Positions 2,372 through 50,521 of a stretch of DNA of 64,000 nucleotides are shown here, piece after piece; position 1 is the stretch's first letter; each line of letters begins with the position of its first letter. The position numbers and the translations under genes are program-made. Source of the DNA: Tequatrovirus BCH953P2; sequence record OZ035785.1; one strand, 5' to 3'. A model generated the notes under the pieces. That model was given only the letters and a program-made list of their open reading frames with translations, ran no database searches and was not told the DNA's origin.

Positions 2372-4351
2372 ATGACTTTATTATCTCCGGGCATTGAGCT
2401 CAAAGAAACTACGGTTCAAAGCACCGTGGTTAATAACTCTACTGGTACAGCAGCTTTGGCCGGTAAATTCCAGTGGGGTCCTGCTTTTCAGATTAAACAG
2501 GTTACAAATGAAGTAGATTTAGTTAATACTTTTGGTCAACCAACCGCTGAAACTGCTGACTATTTTATGTCTGCGATGAATTTCTTGCAGTACGGAAATG
2601 ACTTACGAGTAGTTCGTGCTGTTGATAGAGATACCGCTAAAAACTCATCACCAATCGCTGGTAATATTGAATACACAATTTCTACCCCAGGTAGTAACTA
2701 TGCGGTTGGAGATAAAATCACAGTCAAATATGTTTCAGATGATATTGAAACTGAAGGTAAAATTACTGAAGTAGACGCAGATGGAAAAATTAAGAAAATT
2801 AATATTCCCACTGCAAAAATTATCGCTAAAGCGAAAGAAGTCGGTGAATATCCAACACTAGGTTCTAACTGGACTGCGGAAATTTCTTCATCTTCCTCTG
2901 GTTTAGCTGCAGTAATAACTCTTGGAAAAATTATTACTGATTCTGGTATTTTATTAGCTGAAATTGAAAATGCTGAAGCTGCTATGACAGCGGTTGACTT
3001 TCAAACAAATCTTAAAAAATACGGAATTCCAGGAGTAGTAGCTCTTTATCCAGGCGAATTAGGCGATAAAATTGAAATTGAAATCGTATCTAAAGCTGAC
3101 TATGCAAAAGGAGCTTCTGCATTACTCCCAATTTATCCAGGCGGTGGTACTCGTGCATCTACTGCCAAGGCAGTGTTTGGGTATGGACCGCAAACTGATT
3201 CACAGTACGCTATTATAGTTCGTCGTAATGATGCTATTGTTCAAAGCGTTGTTCTTTCAACTAAACGTGGTGAAAAAGATATTTACGATAGTAACATCTA
3301 TATCGATGACTTTTTCGCAAAAGGCGGCTCAGAATATATTTTTGCAACTGCACAAAACTGGCCAGAAGGCTTCTCTGGAATTTTAACTCTGTCTGGTGGA
3401 TTATCATCAAATGCTGAAGTAACAGCAGGAGATTTGATGGAAGCTTGGGACTTCTTTGCTGACCGTGAATCCGTTGATGTTCAACTGTTTATTGCGGGTT
3501 CTTGTGCCGGTGAATCTTTAGAAACAGCATCTACTGTCCAAAAACACGTCGTTTCAATTGGGGATGCTCGCCAAGATTGCTTAGTATTGTGCTCTCCTCC
3601 ACGTGAAACTGTAGTTGGAATTCCTGTAACTCGTGCTGTTGATAACTTAGTCAATTGGAGAACCGCAACAGGTTCATACACTGATAATAACTTTAATATC
3701 AGTTCAACCTACGCAGCAATTGATGGTAACTATAAGTATCAGTATGACAAATATAATGATGTGAATCGTTGGGTTCCATTAGCAGCTGATATTGCTGGTT
3801 TATGCGCAAGAACTGATAACGTTTCTCATACTTGGATGTCTCCAGCTGGTTATAATCGTGGCCAGATTCTTAACGTTATTAAACTTGCTATTGAAACTCG
3901 CCAAGCTCAGCGCGACCGTTTATACCAAGAAGCTATCAACCCGGTAACTGGTACAGGTGGTGATGGTTACGTATTGTATGGTGATAAAACAGCTACTTCT
4001 GTTCCTTCTCCATTTGATCGTATTAACGTTCGTCGTCTGTTTAATATGTTGAAAACGAATATCGGACGTAGTTCAAAATATCGTTTGTTCGAATTAAACA
4101 ACGCGTTTACTCGTTCATCATTCCGCACAGAAACTGCCCAGTACTTGCAGGGAATTAAAGCTCTCGGTGGAATTTATGAATATCGTGTAGTTTGCGATAC
4201 AACAAATAACACTCCGTCAGTAATTGATAGAAATGAGTTTGTTGCAACATTCTACATCCAACCGGCTCGTAGTATAAATTATATCCAACTTAATTTCGTC
4301 GCAACTGCTACTGGTGCAGATTTTGATGAGTTAACTGGTCTTGCAGGTTAA
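2372..4351 (+). CDS. 18: Contractile tail sheath protein (gp18)
   Basis: 659-aa ORF, same length as T4 gp18; late promoter TATAAATA 28 nt upstream. Confidence 0.95.
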   Translation: MTLLSPGIELKETTVQSTVVNNSTGTAALAGKFQWGPAFQIKQVTNEVDLVNTFGQPTAETADYFMSAMNFLQYGNDLRVVRAVDRDTAKNSSPIAGNIEYTISTPGSNYAVGDKITVKYVSDDIETEGKITEVDADGKIKKINIPTAKIIAKAKEVGEYPTLGSNWTAEISSSSSGLAAVITLGKIITDSGILLAEIENAEAAMTAVDFQTNLKKYGIPGVVALYPGELGDKIEIEIVSKADYAKGASALLPIYPGGGTRASTAKAVFGYGPQTDSQYAIIVRRNDAIVQSVVLSTKRGEKDIYDSNIYIDDFFAKGGSEYIFATAQNWPEGFSGILTLSGGLSSNAEVTAGDLMEAWDFFADRESVDVQLFIAGSCAGESLETASTVQKHVVSIGDARQDCLVLCSPPRETVVGIPVTRAVDNLVNWRTATGSYTDNNFNISSTYAAIDGNYKYQYDKYNDVNRWVPLAADIAGLCARTDNVSHTWMSPAGYNRGQILNVIKLAIETRQAQRDRLYQEAINPVTGTGGDGYVLYGDKTATSVPSPFDRINVRRLFNMLKTNIGRSSKYRLFELNNAFTRSSFRTETAQYLQGIKALGGIYEYRVVCDTTNNTPSVIDRNEFVATFYIQPARSINYIQLNFVATATGADFDELTGLAG

Positions 4352-4359
4352 TTGATTAT

Positions 4360-4373
4360 GGGGCTTCGGCCCC
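4360..4373 (+). terminator. UUCG-tetraloop hairpin after gene 18
   Basis: GGGGC-TTCG-GCCCC immediately after the gene 18 stop; no strong U-run. Confidence 0.5.
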
Positions 4374-4390
4374 TATTCTCGAGGAAACAA

Positions 4391-4996
4391 GTGATTATTT
4401 CTAAGTTTGTTACAATAAAACCAAGAAATCATTCAAAAATGTGGTCGACAATTCTGGGATATAAAGTATCATATCATGATACAGTATCTGTTCCAATAGA
4501 ATTAATGCCAAAGAATAGTAATAAAATAGTTGACGCTAAATGTGATTTGTGTGGTATTAAATTTAGTAGAAGCATTCAGCTTTTAAATAGAACACCCACA
4601 CATGCATGTAGAAAATGTAGCATTAAACAAGTTGCTATTAAAAATTCGGAAGTTCAATCTGGAATAAGCAGACCATGGCAAAGAGGTGATAAACATCCTC
4701 GATGGACTGGCAAAAGAAAAGAGTTTGCATTATATGCTAGTAGAGTTCATTCTATAACTAAGTCAGCTAAAATAAGAAAAATTTGGTCAAAATGGCCAAA
4801 TGCTGATAAAATAGGAGTGTGTGGCGTAGAAGGTGCTTACCAACTCGATCATAAAGTATCTATCAAATATGGATTTGATAATTTAATTCCGCCGGAAATT
4901 ATAGCAAGCGTAAAAAATTTAGAAATAATCACTTGGGAATCTAACCGAGAAAAGTCAAAAAGAAATAGCGTAGATCTTTGGGATTTACTAGAATGA
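4391..4996 (+). CDS. Free-standing HNH-family homing endonuclease (putative)
   Basis: ORF between genes 18 and 19; two CxxC pairs (CDLCG...CRKCS) followed by an HNH-like core (LDHKVSIKYGFDN...NLEIITWESNREKSKRN). The ORF-track start (TTG 4352) runs through the gene-18 terminator hairpin; GTG 4391 preceded by GAGGA is proposed, ATG 4439 is an alternative. Confidence 0.7.
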   Translation: MIISKFVTIKPRNHSKMWSTILGYKVSYHDTVSVPIELMPKNSNKIVDAKCDLCGIKFSRSIQLLNRTPTHACRKCSIKQVAIKNSEVQSGISRPWQRGDKHPRWTGKRKEFALYASRVHSITKSAKIRKIWSKWPNADKIGVCGVEGAYQLDHKVSIKYGFDNLIPPEIIASVKNLEIITWESNREKSKRNSVDLWDLLE

Positions 4997-5022
4997 TTCT
5001 AAAGGCCTGTTTCGGCAGGCCA

Positions 5023-5030
5023 TATAAATA
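5023..5030 (+). promoter_or_regulatory. T4-type late promoter (TATAAATA), distal copy upstream of gene 19
   Basis: Exact TATAAATA. Confidence 0.6.
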
Positions 5031-5081: not shown

Positions 5082-5089
5082 TATAAATA
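5082..5089 (+). promoter_or_regulatory. T4-type late promoter (TATAAATA), proximal copy upstream of gene 19
   Basis: Exact TATAAATA 14 nt upstream of the gene 19 ATG. Confidence 0.7.
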
Positions 5090-5103: not shown

Positions 5104-7254
<2,151 letters not shown>

Positions 7255-16539: not shown

Positions 16540-16568
16540 TAGATATATTTATTACATGGTATTTAGAC

Positions 16569-18080
16569 ATGACTGACATTAAAGTACATTTTTATGATTT
16601 TAGTCACGTGAGAATTGATTGTGAAGAAAGTACATTTCATGAACTCCGTGATTTCTTTAGCTTTGAAGCTGATGGGTATCGTTTTAATCCGAAATACAAA
16701 TATGGCCACTGGGATGGACGAATCCGTCTTTTAGATTATAATCGACTTCTTCCATTTGGATTAGTCGGGCAAATTAAAAAGTTCTGTGATAACTTTGGCT
16801 ATAAAGCCTGGATTGACCCGCAAATTAACGAAAAAGAAGAATTATCAAGAAAAGATTTTGATGAATGGCTTTCTAAATTAGAAATCTATTCAGGAAATAA
16901 AAGAATTGAACCGCACTGGTATCAAAAAGATGCAGTGTTCGAAGGATTAGTTAATCGTCGTAGAATTCTTAATCTTCCAACATCTGCAGGTAAATCTTTA
17001 ATTCAAGCTTTGCTTGCGCGATATTATTTGGAAAATTATGAAGGTAAAATTCTTATCATTGTTCCAACAACTGCTCTAACAACTCAGATGGCTGATGACT
17101 TCGTTGACTATCGTTTATTCAGTCATGCAATGATAAAGAAAATTGGTGGCGGAGCATCAAAAGATGATAAATATAAAAATGATGCACCAGTCGTTGTTGG
17201 TACATGGCAAACTGTAGTAAAACAACCGAAAGAATGGTTCTCACAGTTTGGAATGATGATGAATGATGAATGCCATCTTGCTACAGGAAAAAGTATTTCA
17301 TCTATCATATCAGGTTTAAATAACTGCATGTTCAAATTCGGTTTGTCTGGTTCATTACGTGATGGTAAAGCCAATATCATGCAGTATGTTGGAATGTTTG
17401 GTGAAATATTTAAGCCAGTAACGACTTCTAAGTTAATGGAAGATGGACAAGTAACTGAGCTAAAAATTAATAGTATTTTTCTTCGCTATCCCGATGAGTT
17501 CACTACTAAATTAAAGGGAAAAACTTATCAAGAAGAAATAAAAATTATTACGGGGCTCAGTAAAAGAAATAAATGGATCGCTAAATTAGCTATTAAGCTT
17601 GCGCAAAAAGATGAAAACGCTTTTGTCATGTTTAAACATGTATCGCATGGTAAAGCTATTTTCGATTTAATTAAAAATGAATACGATAAAGTTTATTACG
17701 TATCAGGGGAAGTTGATACCGAAACCCGCAATATAATGAAAACCTTAGCTGAAAATGGTAAAGGAATAATTATAGTAGCGAGTTATGGCGTATTTTCTAC
17801 TGGTATTTCAGTTAAAAATCTGCATCACGTTGTTTTAGCGCACGGTGTTAAATCAAAAATCATTGTATTACAAACAATCGGTCGTGTATTACGTAAGCAT
17901 GGTTCTAAGACAATAGCAACAGTCTGGGACCTCATAGATGATTGTGGTGTTAAGCCAAAATCTGCTAATACGAAAAAGAAATATGTTCATTTGAACTATC
18001 TTTTAAAACACGGCATTGATCGTATTCAGCGCTACGCAGATGAAAAATTTAATTACGTAATGAAAACAGTTAATTTATAA
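16569..18080 (+). CDS. uvsW: UvsW DNA/RNA helicase
   Basis: 503-aa ORF with Walker A (LPTSAGKS) and DECH box (MNDECH); late promoter upstream. Confidence 0.95.
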   Translation: MTDIKVHFYDFSHVRIDCEESTFHELRDFFSFEADGYRFNPKYKYGHWDGRIRLLDYNRLLPFGLVGQIKKFCDNFGYKAWIDPQINEKEELSRKDFDEWLSKLEIYSGNKRIEPHWYQKDAVFEGLVNRRRILNLPTSAGKSLIQALLARYYLENYEGKILIIVPTTALTTQMADDFVDYRLFSHAMIKKIGGGASKDDKYKNDAPVVVGTWQTVVKQPKEWFSQFGMMMNDECHLATGKSISSIISGLNNCMFKFGLSGSLRDGKANIMQYVGMFGEIFKPVTTSKLMEDGQVTELKINSIFLRYPDEFTTKLKGKTYQEEIKIITGLSKRNKWIAKLAIKLAQKDENAFVMFKHVSHGKAIFDLIKNEYDKVYYVSGEVDTETRNIMKTLAENGKGIIIVASYGVFSTGISVKNLHHVVLAHGVKSKIIVLQTIGRVLRKHGSKTIATVWDLIDDCGVKPKSANTKKKYVHLNYLLKHGIDRIQRYADEKFNYVMKTVNL

Positions 18081-26933: not shown

Positions 26934-26987
26934 TCCTCATGTTATGTCAGTAAGACTACTATAACACAACACGAGGGACTTGTAAAC
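26934..26987 (-). promoter_or_regulatory. Early-promoter-like module plus leader (copy A), upstream of the alt.-3 position ORF
   Basis: Minus-strand GTTTAC, 18-nt spacer, TATAGT, then GAGGA SD; 54 bp identical to 42361..42414. Confidence 0.6.
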
Positions 26988-29044
26988 TACATTTTGAACT
27001 TTTTAGACATTCCGTTGATGTTAACCAAAGAAGTCAAGATTTGAGAAACTTCGTTTTCCTCTTCTTTTGATTCTTCTACAAGGAATTGATTAAATCCAGC
27101 CATTGGACGAACTTCGCCAGTTTCCATTAAATGGTCGCCGTCATATACCGATTCCTCTAATTGTTCAGAAGGAGGAACGATTGTACCTTCGATTAGATAC
27201 TTGTTATAAGCAGTTTCTTTCATAAAGTAAGTACTTACTTTATTAATCTTCAGTAAAATTCCACGTGGTAGAATAACTTCAGCTTCTGATGGAAATCCTG
27301 ATAAATGACCTGGAACGATAACTTTGATTCGCTCAGCTCCTTTAATTACCATACCCACGCTAGTTTCAGCATCTTCATTAGCATACGTAGAATGACTACC
27401 CATATGCATCAAATCTTCTGCATCAACGGAACCTTCTCCTTCACCAGAAAATACTGCGCCGGAATCATCTAGAGCCATATAGTTTTTACCATGCTCACCG
27501 AAGATATTTGGTTTAAGCGATGTAGATACGAAGTTCTTGAAATAGAACATTTTGTTTTCAATGTTATGACGCAAAGTTTTAAAGGTAACTTCTTGCCCAC
27601 GATAAAGAGTAGTTCCTGGAGGAAGAACTGAACCTTTAGCAAATGCAGAATCCAACGTCTCGATGTGTTTAATAGCTCGTTCCATATATTCTTCACGGGT
27701 AGAATCAGGTTTACCTAAAAGGAACGAGTTCATTTCAACATATGAATCTGCACAATAATCTTCAATTACATCAGACTCAGCCTGAGTTAATCCTTTTGGA
27801 GTTACTTCAGTGCTTGCGTATTCATATGCCTGAGCGGCAGATTCATTAATCAATTTATAAATGCCATTCATGACAAATTGAATAATAGCTGTCTTTTCAT
27901 CTGGTGTAGCTTTAGAACCTTTAACTAAATCATTGATAATTTTCTTAATAACATCAAAGCTATTAGAAATATTAATGTCAGCAAGATCGCTTAAAATTTT
28001 ATCAGTTTTATAATCAAAGAATTCTTTATTCTTTAAATATTCTTGAGAACCTTGATATGTTATATCGCTCTGCAACTTGATAGATGGATCACGTAAACGT
28101 GCATGGGCTAATGCAATATGATTTCGGAAACTTTCTAGTTCATAATCGTTAGATTTAAAACGAGAAGCACTTCTCATACCACCGATAGCTCCTTTGCTAA
28201 AGTTTGAACCAATCTGAATAACGCCAGAGTTCATCGGACCTTCTGCTTTATATACCGGAACTTTAGATTCAAACTCTTGATATTTCTTGGCAGCGAAGCT
28301 ATCACCCTGAAGTGAAGCATCAACAGTAGAATATTGAGCTTGTGCTGCTAATCGACGACTAATTTTAGTTTTCTGAATAACAGCTTGATCCGTGCGCTTA
28401 TCATTTTCTAAAGCAATAGAAGCAGCAACAGCGACAGCTTTAGGAACAGCATTACCTGTTTTAACGTCTACATAAACATCACCAACCTTTGATTCAACTT
28501 TTGTGAATAACTCAGTTGAAATAGGAGGTACACCTGGAATGTCTTCTAAATTGGCATTTTTACGGTAAACCATAATATATGCGTACTTTTTATCGTAATC
28601 CCAGATTTCCTTTAAAAGAACATATCGACCTGCTCCTTTAGTACGTACTAAACGGTCAGCAATAACTTGCATTTGACGAGCAGCGCCATTTGTTTTACTC
28701 TTTAGTACACGGAATAAGCACGCGTCAATTTTATACTGCTTCATTGTTTGAAGAGCAGTATCAAAAACAGCATTAATGACGCCAATTGGATTTCCACCCA
28801 AGTTTTTAAGCTTAACCAGTGATAATTTCTCGTTGACACCTATCATTACAATATGCATCATTTTATCGCCTGGCTTAACGTTTTTATTTGTATCACCGCC
28901 AGAGGTATATGTACAAAATCTAAATCCAGGAAGCACGCTTTCTTCGCCGGCTTGAATAGCAAAAATTTGAGGTATTTTATGCTTAGGATTTAAGTTAACA
29001 ACCGGCGCCGAAGCGCCGTCAAATAATTCTGTAATAAGTTCCAT
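26987..29044 (-). CDS. Alt-like ADP-ribosyltransferase paralog (full length)
   Basis: 685 aa; same N-terminus (MELITELFD) and conserved C-terminus (YDGDHLMETGEV) as the adjacent Alt; ART R-S-E signature LYRGQ / FVSTS / EAEVILPRG. Confidence 0.85.
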   Translation of the reverse strand: MELITELFDGASAPVVNLNPKHKIPQIFAIQAGEESVLPGFRFCTYTSGGDTNKNVKPGDKMMHIVMIGVNEKLSLVKLKNLGGNPIGVINAVFDTALQTMKQYKIDACLFRVLKSKTNGAARQMQVIADRLVRTKGAGRYVLLKEIWDYDKKYAYIMVYRKNANLEDIPGVPPISTELFTKVESKVGDVYVDVKTGNAVPKAVAVAASIALENDKRTDQAVIQKTKISRRLAAQAQYSTVDASLQGDSFAAKKYQEFESKVPVYKAEGPMNSGVIQIGSNFSKGAIGGMRSASRFKSNDYELESFRNHIALAHARLRDPSIKLQSDITYQGSQEYLKNKEFFDYKTDKILSDLADINISNSFDVIKKIINDLVKGSKATPDEKTAIIQFVMNGIYKLINESAAQAYEYASTEVTPKGLTQAESDVIEDYCADSYVEMNSFLLGKPDSTREEYMERAIKHIETLDSAFAKGSVLPPGTTLYRGQEVTFKTLRHNIENKMFYFKNFVSTSLKPNIFGEHGKNYMALDDSGAVFSGEGEGSVDAEDLMHMGSHSTYANEDAETSVGMVIKGAERIKVIVPGHLSGFPSEAEVILPRGILLKINKVSTYFMKETAYNKYLIEGTIVPPSEQLEESVYDGDHLMETGEVRPMAGFNQFLVEESKEEENEVSQILTSLVNINGMSKKFKM

Positions 29045-38626: not shown

Positions 38627-38859
38627 AGTACGCCATACACCCTTTGTGCTTCAACTAATCCATCAAAATCCAGTTTAAGATGCGATATTTGATCGCCATC
38701 ACCTGGATTCACAATTACTAATACTGAACGAGGAGTTTCGGTAATAACACGAACCGATGTTTCAGGAAATCGTTCAGAAACCTTATTTACCAATTCCTGC
38801 GCAAATAGTTTAACTTTTTCTTGGAATTCTTTAGCAGTAATTGGTTTTTCACTTAGCAT
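38623..38859 (-). CDS. Hypothetical protein (cd.2 position)
   Basis: 78-aa ORF, ATG start. Confidence 0.65.
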   Translation of the reverse strand: MLSEKPITAKEFQEKVKLFAQELVNKVSERFPETSVRVITETPRSVLVIVNPGDGDQISHLKLDFDGLVEAQRVYGVL

Positions 38860-39380
38860 GTTGATCCCAGCTCCTTACTTTCAACGTTTTTAACTAATTT
38901 GACAGAAACTAATTCAGCATCTTGAGTAATCATTACCGGGCCTTCTTCATACTCTTCAAGATATTCTAGAGCTTTCTTTTTAGCTTCTTCCTTCGTATCA
39001 GTTTGAGCATAGATATAAAACATACAACCAGTAATACCTACTACTTTCCACTTAATTTCTTTATCAGTTTTAATTTCAAATTTACTGACAGAATCATCTT
39101 TTTGAACTTCTTCGAAAAAAGAATATTCTAACATATAAGCAATTGAAAATAACGGGCTAACTTTATAAGATTCGCCCATTACATCAACAGCTTTATACCA
39201 GCAGTCATCAATTTCGCGTTTAATGCTAATAACATTTTTCGCAGGATCTATTTTTACTTTAAATGAATTTTCCCCAATAAACTGGGCAATTCGTTTATTA
39301 GCCCCGCAAGTTTCATTAAAAATATCTTTATACCCAGTTTTAAAGCGATAAACCTTATCTTCTTCAAACCATTCGCTCAT
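38853..39380 (-). CDS. Hypothetical protein (cd.3 position)
   Basis: 175-aa ORF, ATG start. Confidence 0.7.
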   Translation of the reverse strand: MSEWFEEDKVYRFKTGYKDIFNETCGANKRIAQFIGENSFKVKIDPAKNVISIKREIDDCWYKAVDVMGESYKVSPLFSIAYMLEYSFFEEVQKDDSVSKFEIKTDKEIKWKVVGITGCMFYIYAQTDTKEEAKKKALEYLEEYEEGPVMITQDAELVSVKLVKNVESKELGSTC

Positions 39381-39781: not shown

Positions 39782-40982
<1,201 letters not shown>

Positions 40983-40986
<4 letters not shown>

Positions 40987-44032: not shown

Positions 44033-45211
44033 TTAAAAGTATTTTTTAAAACTCATCATAACTTTATCATCAACATCATTATCAATCTGTGCAACAAGGT
44101 AAGATGACAGTTCTACTTCTTGTGGCGCGGATTGAACATTATCAGAATTAAGATATTCACGAATCCAAGGATATGGGTGTTTAACCGGAGCATCGGTAAT
44201 TGGGCATGGAAGACCACACTGTTTCATACGAGATACAGTTAAGTAATCAATAAAGCTCCACATGCTATTTGTATTTAATCCAGGAACATCGCCATCTTTA
44301 AATAAATGAACTGCCCAATCTTTTTCTTGGCGGTTAACTTCCATGAAAATATCAACTGCTTCTTGTTCACACTCTTGAGCAATTTTAACCCATTCATCAC
44401 CATCAGTACCGGATTGAAGCTGACGAATAATATATTGAGTGCCTTTAAGGTGAAGCTGCTCATCACGTGCAATGAACTTCATAATCTTGGCATTACCTTC
44501 CATGATTTCCATGTTCTTATGGAAGTTAAAGGTACATGCGAAAGATACATAAAAACGAATAGCTTCTAAGGCATTAATAACGTGCAAACAGAGGTAAAGA
44601 GATTTCATTAGCTCACGCTTCCAATATGTCTCATGCTCAATAGCATCTTCAATAACGTCTTCGTCTGCATTAATTTCTTTTTGGTATTCGATATCAGCTT
44701 TAGCGTTTTCCCAATAACGAGTTTTAATCAGAACATCATCATAATAACGTCCAATGGATTCAGCACGTTTCATAATAGCTTCATCTAATACAATTTCATC
44801 AAATACCTTCGATGGATCAGTATAAAGATTTCGCATGATATGTGTATATGAACGGCTGTGAATAGTTTCACTAAAAGTCCACGTAGCAACCCATGTATCA
44901 AGGCTTGGGTCTGAAATTAATGACATAAGTACAGCAGACGGCGCACGGCCCTGAATGCTATCCAAAAGTGATTGATACTTCAGGTTATTAGTAAAAATAT
45001 TTTGCTGATACTGAGGAAGCTTATTAAATTGCGCAGCATCCATCATTAAGTTTACTTCTTCAGGACGCCAGAAAAATGATAAGGACTTCTCTGTAAGTTC
45101 TTCAAATACTCGATGCCGTTGAATATCATAACGCGCAATACCAAGACCTGAACCAAAAAACATAGGTTCTTTTAAAACATCAACTGGATTTGTATTAAAA
45201 ACTGTGCTCAT
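44033..45211 (-). CDS. nrdB: Ribonucleotide reductase beta subunit (NrdB), uninterrupted
   Basis: 392-aa continuous ORF with the di-iron/tyrosyl-radical protein architecture; no intron-sized interruption. Confidence 0.95.
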   Translation of the reverse strand: MSTVFNTNPVDVLKEPMFFGSGLGIARYDIQRHRVFEELTEKSLSFFWRPEEVNLMMDAAQFNKLPQYQQNIFTNNLKYQSLLDSIQGRAPSAVLMSLISDPSLDTWVATWTFSETIHSRSYTHIMRNLYTDPSKVFDEIVLDEAIMKRAESIGRYYDDVLIKTRYWENAKADIEYQKEINADEDVIEDAIEHETYWKRELMKSLYLCLHVINALEAIRFYVSFACTFNFHKNMEIMEGNAKIMKFIARDEQLHLKGTQYIIRQLQSGTDGDEWVKIAQECEQEAVDIFMEVNRQEKDWAVHLFKDGDVPGLNTNSMWSFIDYLTVSRMKQCGLPCPITDAPVKHPYPWIREYLNSDNVQSAPQEVELSSYLVAQIDNDVDDKVMMSFKKYF

Positions 45212-45262
45212 AAATTTTCCGCTTAGTTAATAGTTGGTGACTCGTCCATGAGTCAAATTATA

Positions 45263-47527
45263 TCATAATTTACAGGATGAACAATCTTCAGCTTTTGGAG
45301 TTTCTATTTCATAATCATCAGTACCAGAACCATCGCGGGTATTATGATAATAGAAGTTTTTAATGCCATAATACCATCCGTATAGCATGTCATCAATCAT
45401 TATTGACATTGGAACCTTTCCTTTTGGAAAAATCTGCGGGTCATAGTATGTATTCGCTGAAGCTGATTGACACACCCATTTCAGCATAATAGCTACCTGC
45501 GTAAGATAAGGTTTATTACCTTTCTTAGCTAATTTCCATGTATAATCATAAAGGTCTATGTTATGCTCAATATTGGGCACGACCTGATTAAAGGAGCCCT
45601 CTTTTGATTCTTTAACAGAGACTGGTCCACGTGGAGGCTCGATACCGTTTGTACTGTTAGAAACTTGGGAAGATGACTCACATGGCATAAGTGCTGATAA
45701 TGTGCTATTACGGATGCCAAAGAGCTTAAGGTCTTCCCGCAGCGACGACCAGTCACAAACGTATTTTGGAGCTGCGATTTGGTCAATCTTTTTATTGTAC
45801 CAGTCGATAGGTAATTCGCCTCGAGACCAACGAGTGTCTGAATAATATTCGCAAGGTCCTTTTTCTTTGGCGAGCTTAATGGATGCTTTAATGAGTCCAT
45901 ACTGTAATCTCTCAAATAGTTCATGTGTTAAATCGTTAGCATCTTCATAAGAAGCAAAGTTACTTGCCAGCCAAGCTGCATAGTTGGTAACACCTACACC
46001 GAGGTTACGACGCTTTTTAGCTTTTTCTGCTTCAGGAACTGGATATCCTTGGTAATCCAACAGATTATCAAGAGCACGAACTTGAACTTCTGCCAATTCA
46101 TTAATTTTATCTTGGTCTTGCCAGTCAAAATTATCTAATACGAATGCAGAAAGAGTACACAATCCAATTTCAGCATCAGGGCTATTCACATCATTTGTTG
46201 GAATAGCAATTTCACAACACAAGTTACTCTGACGAATAGGTGCCTTTTCACGAATAAACGGAGTATAGTTATTCGTATTATCAATGAACTGCACATAAAT
46301 CCTTGCTGTTCCTGAACGTTCAGTCATGAGCAATTCAAATAGTTCACGGGCTTTAATACGCTTTTTACGAATATTAGGGTCTTTTTCTGCGGCTTCATAC
46401 AATTCACGGAAACGGTCTTGGTCTTTAAAATAAGAATAATAAAGCTCGCCACCCATTTCATGCGGACTGAACAAAGTAATGTAATCGTTCTTTCCGAATC
46501 GTTCCATCATCAAATCATTCAGTTGAACACCATAATCCATATGACGAATGCGGTTTTCTTCTACGCCTTTGTTATTTTTCAAAACGAGAAGATTTTCAAC
46601 TTCCAAATGCCAAATAGGATAATAAGCAGTAGCAGCGCCGCCACGAATTCCACCCTGTGAGCATGATTTAACAGCAGTCTGAAAATGTTTCCAAAAAGGA
46701 ATAACACCAGTATGGCGTACTTCACCCATGCCAATCTTAGAACCTTCAGCACGAATCATACCTACGTTAATTCCAATTCCAGCGCGTTTAGAGATATATT
46801 CAACAATTGAAGCGGAAGCCTTATTGATAGACTTCAATGAATCTCCTGCCTCAATAACAACACATGAACTAAACTGTCGAGTCGGAGTACGGCAACCAGC
46901 CATAATAGGAGTTGGCAATGAAATCTGTCGAGTAGATACTGCTTCATAAAAACGAATAACATGTTTTAATCTATCAACAGGTTCATCTTGATGCAATGCC
47001 ATTCCAATAGTCATAAATGCAAACTGTGGAGTTTCATAAATTTGACCAGTGGTTTTATCTTTAACTAGATATTTTTCTTTTAATTGCATCGCCCCGGAAT
47101 AAGTAAATTCCATATCCCGCTCGTGCTTAATTTTTGATTCTAAAAATGTAATTTCTTCTGCTGAATATTTTGACAATAATTCAGGGTCGTATTTACCTTC
47201 ATTTACACAGTAAGAAATATGGTCAATAAATGAACGTGGTTCATACTGCCCATAAACATGCTTACGAAGAGCAAACATTAAACAACGTGCAGCTACATAT
47301 TGATAATCAGGCTCTTCAACCGAAATAGAATTCGCAGCAGCCTTAATGACAATAGTCTGAATATCATTAGTTGTCATTCCATCACGGAGATAAGATTTAA
47401 TATTTTCATATAATTCATAAGGATCTACTGATGTTCCTTCAGCTGCCCAAGATAAAACTTTAATAATTTTTTGTGGGTCAAAGCTCTGAGAAACACCACT
47501 ACTTTTGATAACATTAATTAATTGCAT
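45263..47527 (-). CDS. nrdA: Ribonucleotide reductase alpha subunit (NrdA)
   Basis: 754-aa ORF, class Ia RNR large subunit; same length as T4 NrdA. Confidence 0.96.
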   Translation of the reverse strand: MQLINVIKSSGVSQSFDPQKIIKVLSWAAEGTSVDPYELYENIKSYLRDGMTTNDIQTIVIKAAANSISVEEPDYQYVAARCLMFALRKHVYGQYEPRSFIDHISYCVNEGKYDPELLSKYSAEEITFLESKIKHERDMEFTYSGAMQLKEKYLVKDKTTGQIYETPQFAFMTIGMALHQDEPVDRLKHVIRFYEAVSTRQISLPTPIMAGCRTPTRQFSSCVVIEAGDSLKSINKASASIVEYISKRAGIGINVGMIRAEGSKIGMGEVRHTGVIPFWKHFQTAVKSCSQGGIRGGAATAYYPIWHLEVENLLVLKNNKGVEENRIRHMDYGVQLNDLMMERFGKNDYITLFSPHEMGGELYYSYFKDQDRFRELYEAAEKDPNIRKKRIKARELFELLMTERSGTARIYVQFIDNTNNYTPFIREKAPIRQSNLCCEIAIPTNDVNSPDAEIGLCTLSAFVLDNFDWQDQDKINELAEVQVRALDNLLDYQGYPVPEAEKAKKRRNLGVGVTNYAAWLASNFASYEDANDLTHELFERLQYGLIKASIKLAKEKGPCEYYSDTRWSRGELPIDWYNKKIDQIAAPKYVCDWSSLREDLKLFGIRNSTLSALMPCESSSQVSNSTNGIEPPRGPVSVKESKEGSFNQVVPNIEHNIDLYDYTWKLAKKGNKPYLTQVAIMLKWVCQSASANTYYDPQIFPKGKVPMSIMIDDMLYGWYYGIKNFYYHNTRDGSGTDDYEIETPKAEDCSSCKL

Positions 47528-48081: not shown

Positions 48082-48942
48082 TTACACCGCCATCTTTCCT
48101 TTAATAGGAGGATGTGATACATAGTTGTTAAGAACGAAATCTTTAGGCCTAAGTTTAAGAACATATTTTAATTGTTCTTTAGTAGAAAGATATCGGAATT
48201 TATAAGGTAGACCACTTATTACCAGCTCACAAAGCTCTTTAGGTTCACGACGCAAAATTTCTTTACATTGTTCTACGTGATTCATATAGATATGAGTATT
48301 ACCGCCAGAAAATATCAAATCTCCCGGAATAAGATTACACATCTTAGCTACAATATGAACTAACGCAGCGTATGATGCAATATTGAATGGCAAGCCCAAG
48401 AACACGTCAACACTTCTTTGATACCACTGTAAATCCAAATGGCCATTACGAACATTAAATTGATAAAACATATGACAAGGCGGTAATGCCATCTGCTTGA
48501 GTTCAGCTGGATTCCATGCTGAAACAATTTGACGCCTATCATTTGGCAGTTTTTTAATACGATCAATAACTTCTATAATTTGGTCTACACCGCCAAAATC
48601 ACGCCATTGTTTTCCATAAATTGGACCAAGTTCACCACTATGGTATCCTAAATCTTTTGCTTGATTTTCGTAATTTTCATCCCAGACTGTTTTGCCTTGG
48701 ATTAACGAATCATGCTGAATTAATCGTAAATCATTGACATTTGTGCTTCCTGATAAAAACCATATTAACTCAGAAATGCAAGCTTTCCAGGCGAGCTTTT
48801 TAGTTGTTACTGCAGGAAAACCTTTGGTTAAATCCCAACGCAATTTAGTACCGAACAAAGCAATTGTTCCTGTGCCTGTTCGGTCATCAGTTTCATAGCC
48901 ATTTTCAAAAATGTCTTTAATTAAATCTTGGTATTGTTTCAT
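48082..48942 (-). CDS. td: Thymidylate synthase, uninterrupted
   Basis: 286-aa continuous ORF with the active-site region [10 protein letters not shown]; no group I intron. Confidence 0.96.
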
Positions 48943-48983: not shown

Positions 48984-49331
48984 TTAATATGGTTTAGCAT
49001 CAAATTTTCTCTCAATTTCAGGCGTGAAATATAATTCTTTACCGCGTTTGGAAAAACGACCAATAATATGATAATTATTCTCATCAAACGTGATATTACC
49101 AATATCCATAGCTTTCAACCAAATATCGATATTTCTATCCAGCTTTATGTCAAAATTCCAATACGGAGAACTATTACCGAAAATACTGCAAGCGGATTCA
49201 GTGAAACAACTGCTATAAATCTTGTCTTTAGGAACTACTAATTGATAGACGCCTTTAATAAACTGAGGACCCTGCCATTTTGGTTGTTTCGCGTCTTTTT
49301 CTAATAGAATAGGGTAATAATTAAAATTCAT
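48984..49331 (-). CDS. Hypothetical protein between frd and td
   Basis: 115-aa ORF with ATG start, between the frd stop (49351) and td start (48942); no recognisable motif. Confidence 0.6.
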   Translation of the reverse strand: MNFNYYPILLEKDAKQPKWQGPQFIKGVYQLVVPKDKIYSSCFTESACSIFGNSSPYWNFDIKLDRNIDIWLKAMDIGNITFDENNYHIIGRFSKRGKELYFTPEIERKFDAKPY

Positions 49332-49350: not shown

Positions 49351-50177
<827 letters not shown>

Positions 50178-50185
50178 ATTATCTC

Positions 50186-50521
50186 CTAATATAAAGGATC
50201 GGGAACATATCCGCTGGCTTTAATCATTTTGATTAACGTTAACATTCCTTTATTAACTGCTCGTGAGATTTCATCAAAAACTTCATCACTAAAAAGTTCT
50301 AACACACCCTTCTGAACTTTTAATTTACACCCAACAATTTCGTCATCACCTATAGTAAATTCGTTTCCGCCAATTCCACCGAAAAACTTAATTACGCCAG
50401 TTAATTGTTTTCCACGAGAATATGGGTCATGTGATAAAGTAATATGAGTCACCCCAGGTACAGTTTTAAATTGGCAGCGGATGTTTACTTGGGCAATTCC
50501 AGTTACGTAAATGTCAGACAT
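50186..50521 (-). CDS. Hypothetical protein (frd.2 position)
   Basis: 111-aa ORF, ATG start. Confidence 0.7.
   Translation of the reverse strand: MSDIYVTGIAQVNIRCQFKTVPGVTHITLSHDPYSRGKQLTGVIKFFGGIGGNEFTIGDDEIVGCKLKVQKGVLELFSDEVFDEISRAVNKGMLTLIKMIKASGYVPDPLY

Follow-up and report, generated by a model that had tools for sequence, protein, structure and literature searches.

The first 9 kb of a 64,000-nucleotide stretch of Tequatrovirus BCH953P2 (sequence record OZ035785.1; the whole stretch is hereafter referred to as the window) represent the T-even late region of a T6-like phage, in which an open reading frame (ORF) known from T6 as ORF19.1 is lodged between the tail sheath gene 18 and the tail tube gene 19. 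Gene 18 (2372-4351, plus strand, as for the other features of this junction given below) was delimited from the ORF list and the T4 annotation, and its product shares 98.5% amino acid identity with T4 gp18. Its TAA stop codon (4349-4351) directly abuts a 644-bp insert (4352-4995), and a three-way alignment of the window with T4 and T6, together with the junction sequences, revealed that this insert replaces the 8 bp TACGGTGC found in T4. Identity with T4 picks up again at ATTCTAAAGGCCTG (4996) and extends through the native hairpin of the spacer (5004-5021), which is the same in T4 and now lies 3' of the insert, through both late-promoter motifs of gene 19 (TATAAATA, at 5023-5030 and again at 5082-5089), which are also common to T4, and into gene 19 itself (5104-5595, from the ORF list), whose product is 100% identical to T4 gp19 and which is followed by gene 20. 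The spacer between genes 18 and 19 reaches 752 bp in the window phage versus 116 bp in T4, in line with the short T4 gap mentioned in a preliminary description of this sequence. DNA identity to T4 is 97.7% over genes 17 and 18, and the region is 98-99% identical to T6-like coliphages. Neither the alignment nor the junction sequences revealed a target-site duplication or terminal repeats at the insert ends, and a transposon-like origin was dropped on these grounds.

The insert is almost filled by a coding sequence of 201 codons (4391-4996), identified from the ORF list and the alignment, with a GTG start and a TGA stop whose final base is the first one again common to the window and T4. The mechanically defined ORF opens at a TTG (4352), and GTG 4391 is the likely start, with a Shine-Dalgarno sequence (GAGG, 4381-4384) six bases upstream; this leader is conserved in the RB5 allele, and the same GTG with a VIISK N-terminus is common to T6, RB5, UP19, RZ and KMB20. 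The ATG at 4358, chosen by some gene callers and yielding a 212-aa product, was rejected, as it falls within a hairpin stem and the resulting extension is not conserved. The 201-aa product is 99.5% identical to T6 ORF160/ORF19.1, which was deposited in 1994 under the latter name, so that the ORF is already on record, functionally uncharacterised, and is not a new one. Database copies are mostly labelled "hypothetical protein" and some "head morphogenesis protein" or "type II restriction endonuclease". The 2010 reviews dealing with mobile elements of T4 and its relatives (PMC2988022 among them) leave genes 18 and 19 unmentioned; a table in one of them counts a single "other HNH" for T6 with its location unstated. 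Literature searches for ORF19.1 or for a homing endonuclease between genes 18 and 19 returned no experimental paper, the name ORF19.1 being swamped by the Candida orf19.x genes. The 1994 deposit qualifies the earlier suggestion of an uncharacterised gene.

The insert also carries a hairpin of its own (GGGGC-UUCG-GCCCC, 4360-4373), evident from the sequence and from RNA folding just 5' of the ribosome-binding site, with an extended stem that pairs positions 4352-4355 with 4379-4382 and touches the first Shine-Dalgarno bases. UP19 and RZ have different hairpins at the same place, 5' of the Shine-Dalgarno sequence and GTG. The preliminary description had correctly located this hairpin and the two gene 19 late promoters; its proposal that the hairpin terminates gene 18 transcription was dropped, the structure being insert-borne, with no T-run behind it and no terminator-like site called by a consensus scan. 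No TATAAATA occurs inside or just upstream of ORF19.1, the nearest being the gene 18 promoter (2336-2343). The promoter-less location between two essential conserved genes, as first described, is supported, and the ORF is optional, with exact boundaries against T4. Having no TATAAATA of its own, it would depend on gene 18 late transcripts running on into it; the hairpin and the GTG start would further reduce its expression, which would be low and late.

Predicted modules of the ORF19.1 product

The product has a predicted two-domain structure. In the AlphaFold model, the N-terminal module (about residues 1-90; 4391-4660) places strands and helices about a zinc finger of treble-clef-like type, whose four cysteines are the CxxC pairs C51/C54 (4541-4552) and C73/C76 (4607-4618), with a predicted local distance difference test score (pLDDT) of 93-96, and is presumed to be a DNA-recognition module. 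The C-terminal part (residues 96-201; 4676-4993) resembles an HNH nuclease domain, with a predicted beta-beta-alpha core composed of strand 150-154 (YQLDH), strand 177-181 and helix 182-187. Putative catalytic residues are D153-H154 (4847-4852) in the first strand, N176 (4916-4918), which opens the second strand, and N185 (4943-4945) in the helix. The two CxxC pairs and the HNH-like core reported in the preliminary description were thus both recovered, in an ORF of 201 codons at the place it had indicated.

A profile search against 1.84 billion representatives retrieved 6468 clusters at E <= 0.001, including 1651 at E <= 1e-10, and many of the 6468 match the C-terminal 100 residues only. In an alignment of 88 representatives taken from the best 150 of these clusters, the sole invariant columns were D153, H154, N176 and N185, none being located in the zinc finger, and D153-H154 was also invariant among 37 close relatives. 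This arrangement is the one anticipated for an HNH active site, namely a strand-end catalytic histidine preceded by an aspartate, an asparagine at the second strand and a metal-binding asparagine in the helix; D153, H154, N176 and N185 would correspond, respectively, to the expected metal ligand, general base, structural asparagine and second metal ligand.

Curated families add fragmentary indications. The only Pfam match of the window protein was a weak one to the DUF4379 treble-clef zinc finger, covering both CxxC pairs; DUF4379 was also weakly matched by 14 of the 37 close relatives and 9 of the 88 distant ones. HNH_4 was the commonest Pfam family among the 88 (11 relatives, best E = 9.5e-4) and the Pfam HNH family was matched by five (best E = 2.4e-3), all of them under the gathering score, and one of the 37 close relatives matched HNH_4 at E = 0.078. 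NUMOD3 was detected in 3 of the 88 (best E = 2.7e-8), along with several helix-turn-helix families having few members each. The same C-terminal domain is joined in relatives to NUMOD3, multiple helix-turn-helix, DUF7487 or DUF4379 modules. Among phage protein families, the product matched PHROG family 5104, of unknown function, at E = 6e-83, and weak N-terminal matches pointed to homing or HNH endonuclease families, such as PHROG 12131 "homing endonuclease" (E = 4e-4). A sequence-profile search of the PDB yielded zinc-finger matches only, for instance with the mS66 zinc-finger repeats. The best matches of the predicted fold were HNH nucleases, with the Cas9 HNH domain, McrA, BrxU and SspE-CTD among them. 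With hhalign, the family profile aligned with the HNH segment of SpCas9 (YQLDH with YDVDH, and NREKS with NRGKS, N185 falling on the NRGKS asparagine; P = 0.0028), this segment itself being verified as HNH_4 (E = 1.4e-17). Several concordant lines, none of them strong alone, thus make the HNH assignment well supported, short of a demonstrated membership.

Alleles and relatives at the sheath-tube junction

Two alleles of ORF19.1 were distinguished in Tequatrovirus. The window, or T6-type, allele was found in 69 records of the phage collection (at least 80% covered; 97.7-99.5% identity among the matches listed), and a second, RB3-type allele in 48, including RB3, RB5, RB10, HP3 and pSs-1. An uninterrupted T4-like junction was found in at least 532 records. 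Empty sites, in T4 and many others, exist next to occupied ones, and the alignment of the 18-19 interval proposed in the preliminary description gave exact insert boundaries. Spacers compared across genera are 43-204 bp long when empty and 698-1433 bp long when occupied. Leader, first six codons and last 75 codons are common to both Tequatrovirus alleles (87% amino acid and about 90% DNA identity), with only 36% identity over residues 1-124, a pattern indicating that the putative catalytic end was kept and the other module exchanged. Comparisons within the allele gave a ratio of nonsynonymous to synonymous substitutions (dN/dS) of 0.03-0.06, and those with other alleles and genera gave 0.20-0.46; ORF19.1 is, by this measure, under purifying selection. 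Full-length matches accounted for 232 of the 242 obtained by tblastn. ORF identity is incongruent with phage relatedness: RB5 has a 99% identical gp18 and an ORF only 50% identical, and at about 72% gp18 identity the ORF identity spans 33% to 66%.

Full-length relatives lie between the sheath gene and the tube gene in each of the 11 T4-like genomes that were checked individually. These were UP19, Bp7 and vB_EcoM_005 (Dhakavirus), KMB20 (Karamvirus), RZ (Gaprivervirus), RB5 (Tequatrovirus), Merci (Jiaodavirus) and CHI14 (Winklervirus), as well as phiM7 (Emdodecavirus) from a Sinorhizobium host, AS-zj (Ceceduovirus) from an Aeromonas host and Thanatos-2 from a Shewanella host. On these placements, ORF19.1 belongs to an old lineage that is settled at this junction throughout the T4 superfamily, and is not a one-off insertion. 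Two insertion points were recognised within the spacer. The first, used in T6, RB3, UP19 and RZ, lies right behind the gene 18 stop codon and is associated with an own hairpin, Shine-Dalgarno sequence and GTG; the second, used in CHI14, Bp7 and vB_EcoM_005, lies 3' of the native promoter element, with an ORF of 227 codons that ends 4 nt before the gene 19 ATG and whose product is 32-36% identical. Both are filled in tandem between genes 18 and 19 of KMB20 (locus 2501-3902).

A pattern scan of IMG/VR extended this picture to 80 loci classified by arrangement. Sheath, ORF and tube follow each other on one strand in 29 of them, the ORF precedes tube at a contig end in two, a sheath gene lies nearby in five, and 42 loci are elsewhere, having mainly the C-terminal domain in common. 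The remaining two, on environmental T4-like contigs, carry the family member on the opposite strand between tube and sheath, a placement for which simple vertical descent of a co-transcribed gene would hardly account. At the examined loci elsewhere, the ORF adjoins T4-core genes, identified by Pfam, or other endonuclease-like ORFs. Sites included the interval between the Mre11-like gp47 and Rad50-like gp46 genes, the position directly 3' of the major capsid gene 23, the vicinity of the gp41 helicase, gp44 clamp loader, class II ribonucleotide reductase or gp20 portal genes, and positions next to NUMOD3 or HNH_3 endonuclease-like ORFs.

Several further observations concern the neighbourhood of this junction. 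An ORF of 193 codons occurs between genes 19 and 20 in KMB20 (4398-4979), Bp7 (3269-3850) and vB_EcoM_005 (3247-3828); the Bp7 copy is annotated "HNH endonuclease", its only Pfam match being a weak one to SegE_GIY-YIG, and the KMB20 copy had no Pfam match. The whole stretch from gene 18 to gene 20 has the look of a hotspot for ORFs of endonuclease-like type. In Ptacy1496 (2884-3903) and Bp7 (3908-4630), the annotation splits gene 20 (portal) into two consecutive coding sequences, which may reflect a frameshift, a sequencing error or an interruption. T-even sequence was also encountered in records named Pseudomonas phage PsgM02F, Pseudomonas phage vB_PSGBLB0006 and Staphylococcus phage SAJK-IND (32 kb); the two Pseudomonas records are 98-99% identical to coliphages across the 18-19 locus, and the host labels or assemblies of all three look doubtful.

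Proposed homing and other explanations

ORF19.1 is probably a free-standing homing endonuclease gene of HNH type. It is an optional intergenic ORF with precise boundaries between conserved genes, its predicted nuclease domain is paired with a separable, exchangeable putative DNA-binding module, and the presence of relatives beside conserved genes at other sites argues for mobility of the family. Its product would consist of two modules, an N-terminal one for recognition (about residues 1-90) and a C-terminal nuclease (about residues 96-201) of a divergent, cysteine-free D-H...N...N beta-beta-alpha-metal type. The sequences show presence and absence with exact boundaries, purifying selection, a conserved motif, the predicted fold, the module swap and the neighbourhoods of relatives; nuclease activity, a target site, homing and the route of expression are inferred. 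In the proposed scheme, the zinc-finger module would recognise DNA, and the nuclease would work with H154 as general base and with D153 and N185 as metal ligands. During a mixed infection, the enzyme would nick or cut the sheath-tube region of a co-infecting relative devoid of the ORF, and recombinational repair from the ORF-carrying genome would copy the ORF and some flanking sequence into the break. The free-standing HNH homing endonuclease proposed in the preliminary description is partly supported, by the D-H...N...N core, the fold matches and the behaviour of relatives, with HNH membership drawn from these features and from no curated profile.

The preliminary description had suggested a target in gene 18 or 19 of relatives without the ORF. 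The single clue to a target site is in the last codons of gene 18, where a patch of clustered differences from T4 (4266-4301) lies 50-85 bp 5' of the insert. Mismatches to T4 amount to 14 in 4208-4307, versus about 2 per 100 bp elsewhere; those in the patch are almost all synonymous, and the bases between patch and insert are nearly identical to T4. Every inspectable T6-type allele carries a T6-like patch. The patch may represent a recognition or immunity region or a recombination mosaic, and neither is claimed here. As a separate observation, the patch creates TATAAATT at 4273-4280 (T4 counterpart, GCATTAAC), one base from the late-promoter motif and 110 bp 5' of the ORF19.1 start, which could be a candidate weak late promoter for the endonuclease gene.

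Several points weigh against homing by an HNH enzyme. The T6-like patch is also present in the empty-site phages RB14, vB_EcoM_112 and G28, and the RB3-type allele occurs with a T4-like patch in sb1, sb3 and Ec_YwIITB1, for which reasons the patch was dropped as the mark of a cleavage or immunity site. The direction of change, insertion or deletion, is not readable from the sequences. No HNH family was matched by the window protein in Pfam at E <= 1, so that the profile match looked for in the preliminary description is confined to the sub-threshold HNH_4 and HNH hits of relatives given above; NCBIfam, scanned with the same protein, gave no informative match, and Foldseek comparison of the full model with the PDB returned nothing at E <= 0.001. 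The literature searches mentioned above found no experimental work on ORF19.1. Finally, the retention of one junction through very deep divergence, combined with purifying selection, also fits a useful resident gene that was repeatedly lost.

This last idea, the main rival, deserves separate consideration. ORF19.1 might be a resident accessory nuclease, domesticated or never selfish, that is kept for the benefit of the phage, for instance because it shuts out competitors, breaks down foreign or host DNA or works against host defence, and that T4 and others have lost. We hold this to be doubtful, although it accommodates the occupation of a single junction in Tequatrovirus and in phages of Sinorhizobium, Aeromonas and Shewanella alike, the purifying selection, the intactness of most copies and the invariance of the putative catalytic residues. 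It is harder to reconcile with the absence of the ORF from most Tequatrovirus records and from the fully viable T4, with two insertion points and tandem double occupancy in a single spacer, with ORF similarities that are incongruent with phage relatedness, and with relatives scattered beside other core genes like seg and mob genes; a PADLOC scan of the window protein gave no informative match either. The resident-nuclease and homing explanations are not mutually exclusive, and according to a paper of 2026, SegB, a homing endonuclease of T6, aids its phage in evading a host defence (PMC13096335).

A zinc-finger protein binding DNA or RNA without nuclease activity, such as a late-gene regulator in which the D-H...N...N residues are structural, is improbable. 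The clear zinc-finger module and the lack of a significant curated HNH match would suit such a protein, but the only four residues that are invariant among the 88 relatives are those expected of an HNH active site and lie outside the zinc finger, the C-terminal domain is the part common to differing architectures, and the top fold matches are nucleases. The least credible proposal, a packaging-associated HNH protein aiding the terminase as in HK97-like phages, is prompted by the HNH-like domain and the proximity of genes 16 (30-524) and 17 (508-2340), placed two genes upstream by the ORF list, and founders on the intervening gene 18, on an ORF that adjoins the sheath-tube junction and not the terminase and whose relatives also lie by gp46/47, gp23 and others, and on the fact that T4, with its headful packaging that needs no cos cleavage, and most relatives package DNA without it, the ORF being absent from at least 532 records that share these terminase genes.

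Beyond the single gene, a broader and much more tentative picture can be drawn of a large nuclease clade (6468 clusters at 50% identity) that domain libraries fail to recognise, there being no Pfam or NCBIfam model for it, one branch of which might have become fixed on the sheath-tube junction and persisted throughout the T4-like radiation by swapping its recognition module and keeping its catalytic one. This family-level picture, which combines the lack of a curated model with one junction held throughout the T4 superfamily and with modules swapped in nature, is the part most worth attention. If true, it would offer a natural system for studying homing endonuclease retargeting and escape from the cycle of invasion, decay and loss, and the branch could also serve in competition, as a weapon against the tail genes of co-infecting phages, which it would exclude. 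Intron-less homing has its classic system in the T-even phages, and ORF19.1 has stood in databases since its deposition. Were it active, it would add a distinct HNH lineage to the seg/mob/hef set, and crosses of T6-like with T4-like phages would be expected to show marker exclusion localised to the surroundings of the sheath and tube genes. Its two alleles, which occupy one site and have the catalytic domain in common but not the recognition module, would then constitute a ready-made specificity-change experiment. A profile model for the ORF19.1 family would stop genome annotation from missing its members.

Comparison with known endonuclease genes

The window phage differs from T4 in several other mobile or accessory elements. 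It is devoid of segE (16555-16575), of the nrdB intron with its I-TevIII remnant (44535-44538), of nrdB.1 and mobE, which are replaced by 56 bp (45211-45267), and of the td intron with I-TevI (48390-48395); segD appears present between genes 23 and 24. Its set of homing endonuclease genes accordingly differs from that of T4 in both directions. Where T4 has alt.-1/alt.-2, remnants of an old alt duplication, the window has a full-length alt-like ORF of 685 codons (26987-29044, minus strand) that is about 69% identical at the DNA level to part of T4 alt. Small ORFs encoding products of 175, 100, 115, 81 and 111 aa, all on the minus strand, occur at 38853-39380, 40684-40986, 48984-49331 and 49932-50521, where, compared with T4, sequence is inserted into the cd.2/cd.3, pseT/pseT.1, td/frd and frd/frd.1 spacers, and the T4 cd.4/cd.5 segment is missing.

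Among known systems, the T4 genes mobA to mobE, with mobE lying between nrdA and nrdB, resemble ORF19.1 in being intergenic between conserved genes and optional among T-even phages, and Mob proteins use the HNH-type catalytic chemistry proposed here for ORF19.1. The likeness extends to expression signals, mobE being described as lacking an evident promoter and as having a hairpin close to its ribosome-binding site (PMC2988022), like ORF19.1, and to genomic distribution, seg and mob genes being known to scatter beside core genes in the manner of the ORF19.1 relatives. No sequence relationship was detected between the proteins themselves: hhalign found no relation between the ORF19.1 family profile and T4 MobE (P = 0.28), and the tblastn search with ORF19.1 matched 242 phage records only and did not hit the Mob genes of T4-type genomes. 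Mob proteins carry an N-terminal HNH domain of the PF01844 type (residues 21-44 in MobE), whereas the predicted nuclease domain of ORF19.1 is C-terminal and HNH_4-like.

A parallel to the proposed catalytic domain is the HNH_4, or Cas9-McrA-GmrSD, type (PF13395 and relatives), which has the same cysteine-free D-H...N...N core. ORF19.1 departs from it in matching under every curated cut-off, in having its predicted strands parted by a longer insert with two short helices, and in its context, that of a small ORF in a phage instead of a protein of defence or CRISPR systems. In predicted overall layout, it recalls I-TevIII of RB3, reportedly described by Robbins and colleagues in 2007 as a small T-even HNH enzyme with a zinc finger in its N-terminal part and a C-terminal HNH domain. 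I-TevIII is intron-encoded in nrdB, whereas ORF19.1 is free-standing, and RB3-type genomes gave a single tblastn match each, at the 18-19 locus, indicating no similarity to I-TevIII at E <= 1e-3. In position, the analogue of ORF19.1 is SegD, whose free-standing endonuclease gene in T4 separates genes 23 and 24, both of them essential, late and structural; distant ORF19.1 relatives are likewise found directly 3' of gene 23 in environmental T4-like phages, and SegD belongs to the GIY-YIG catalytic family, unlike the HNH-type nuclease that ORF19.1 probably encodes.

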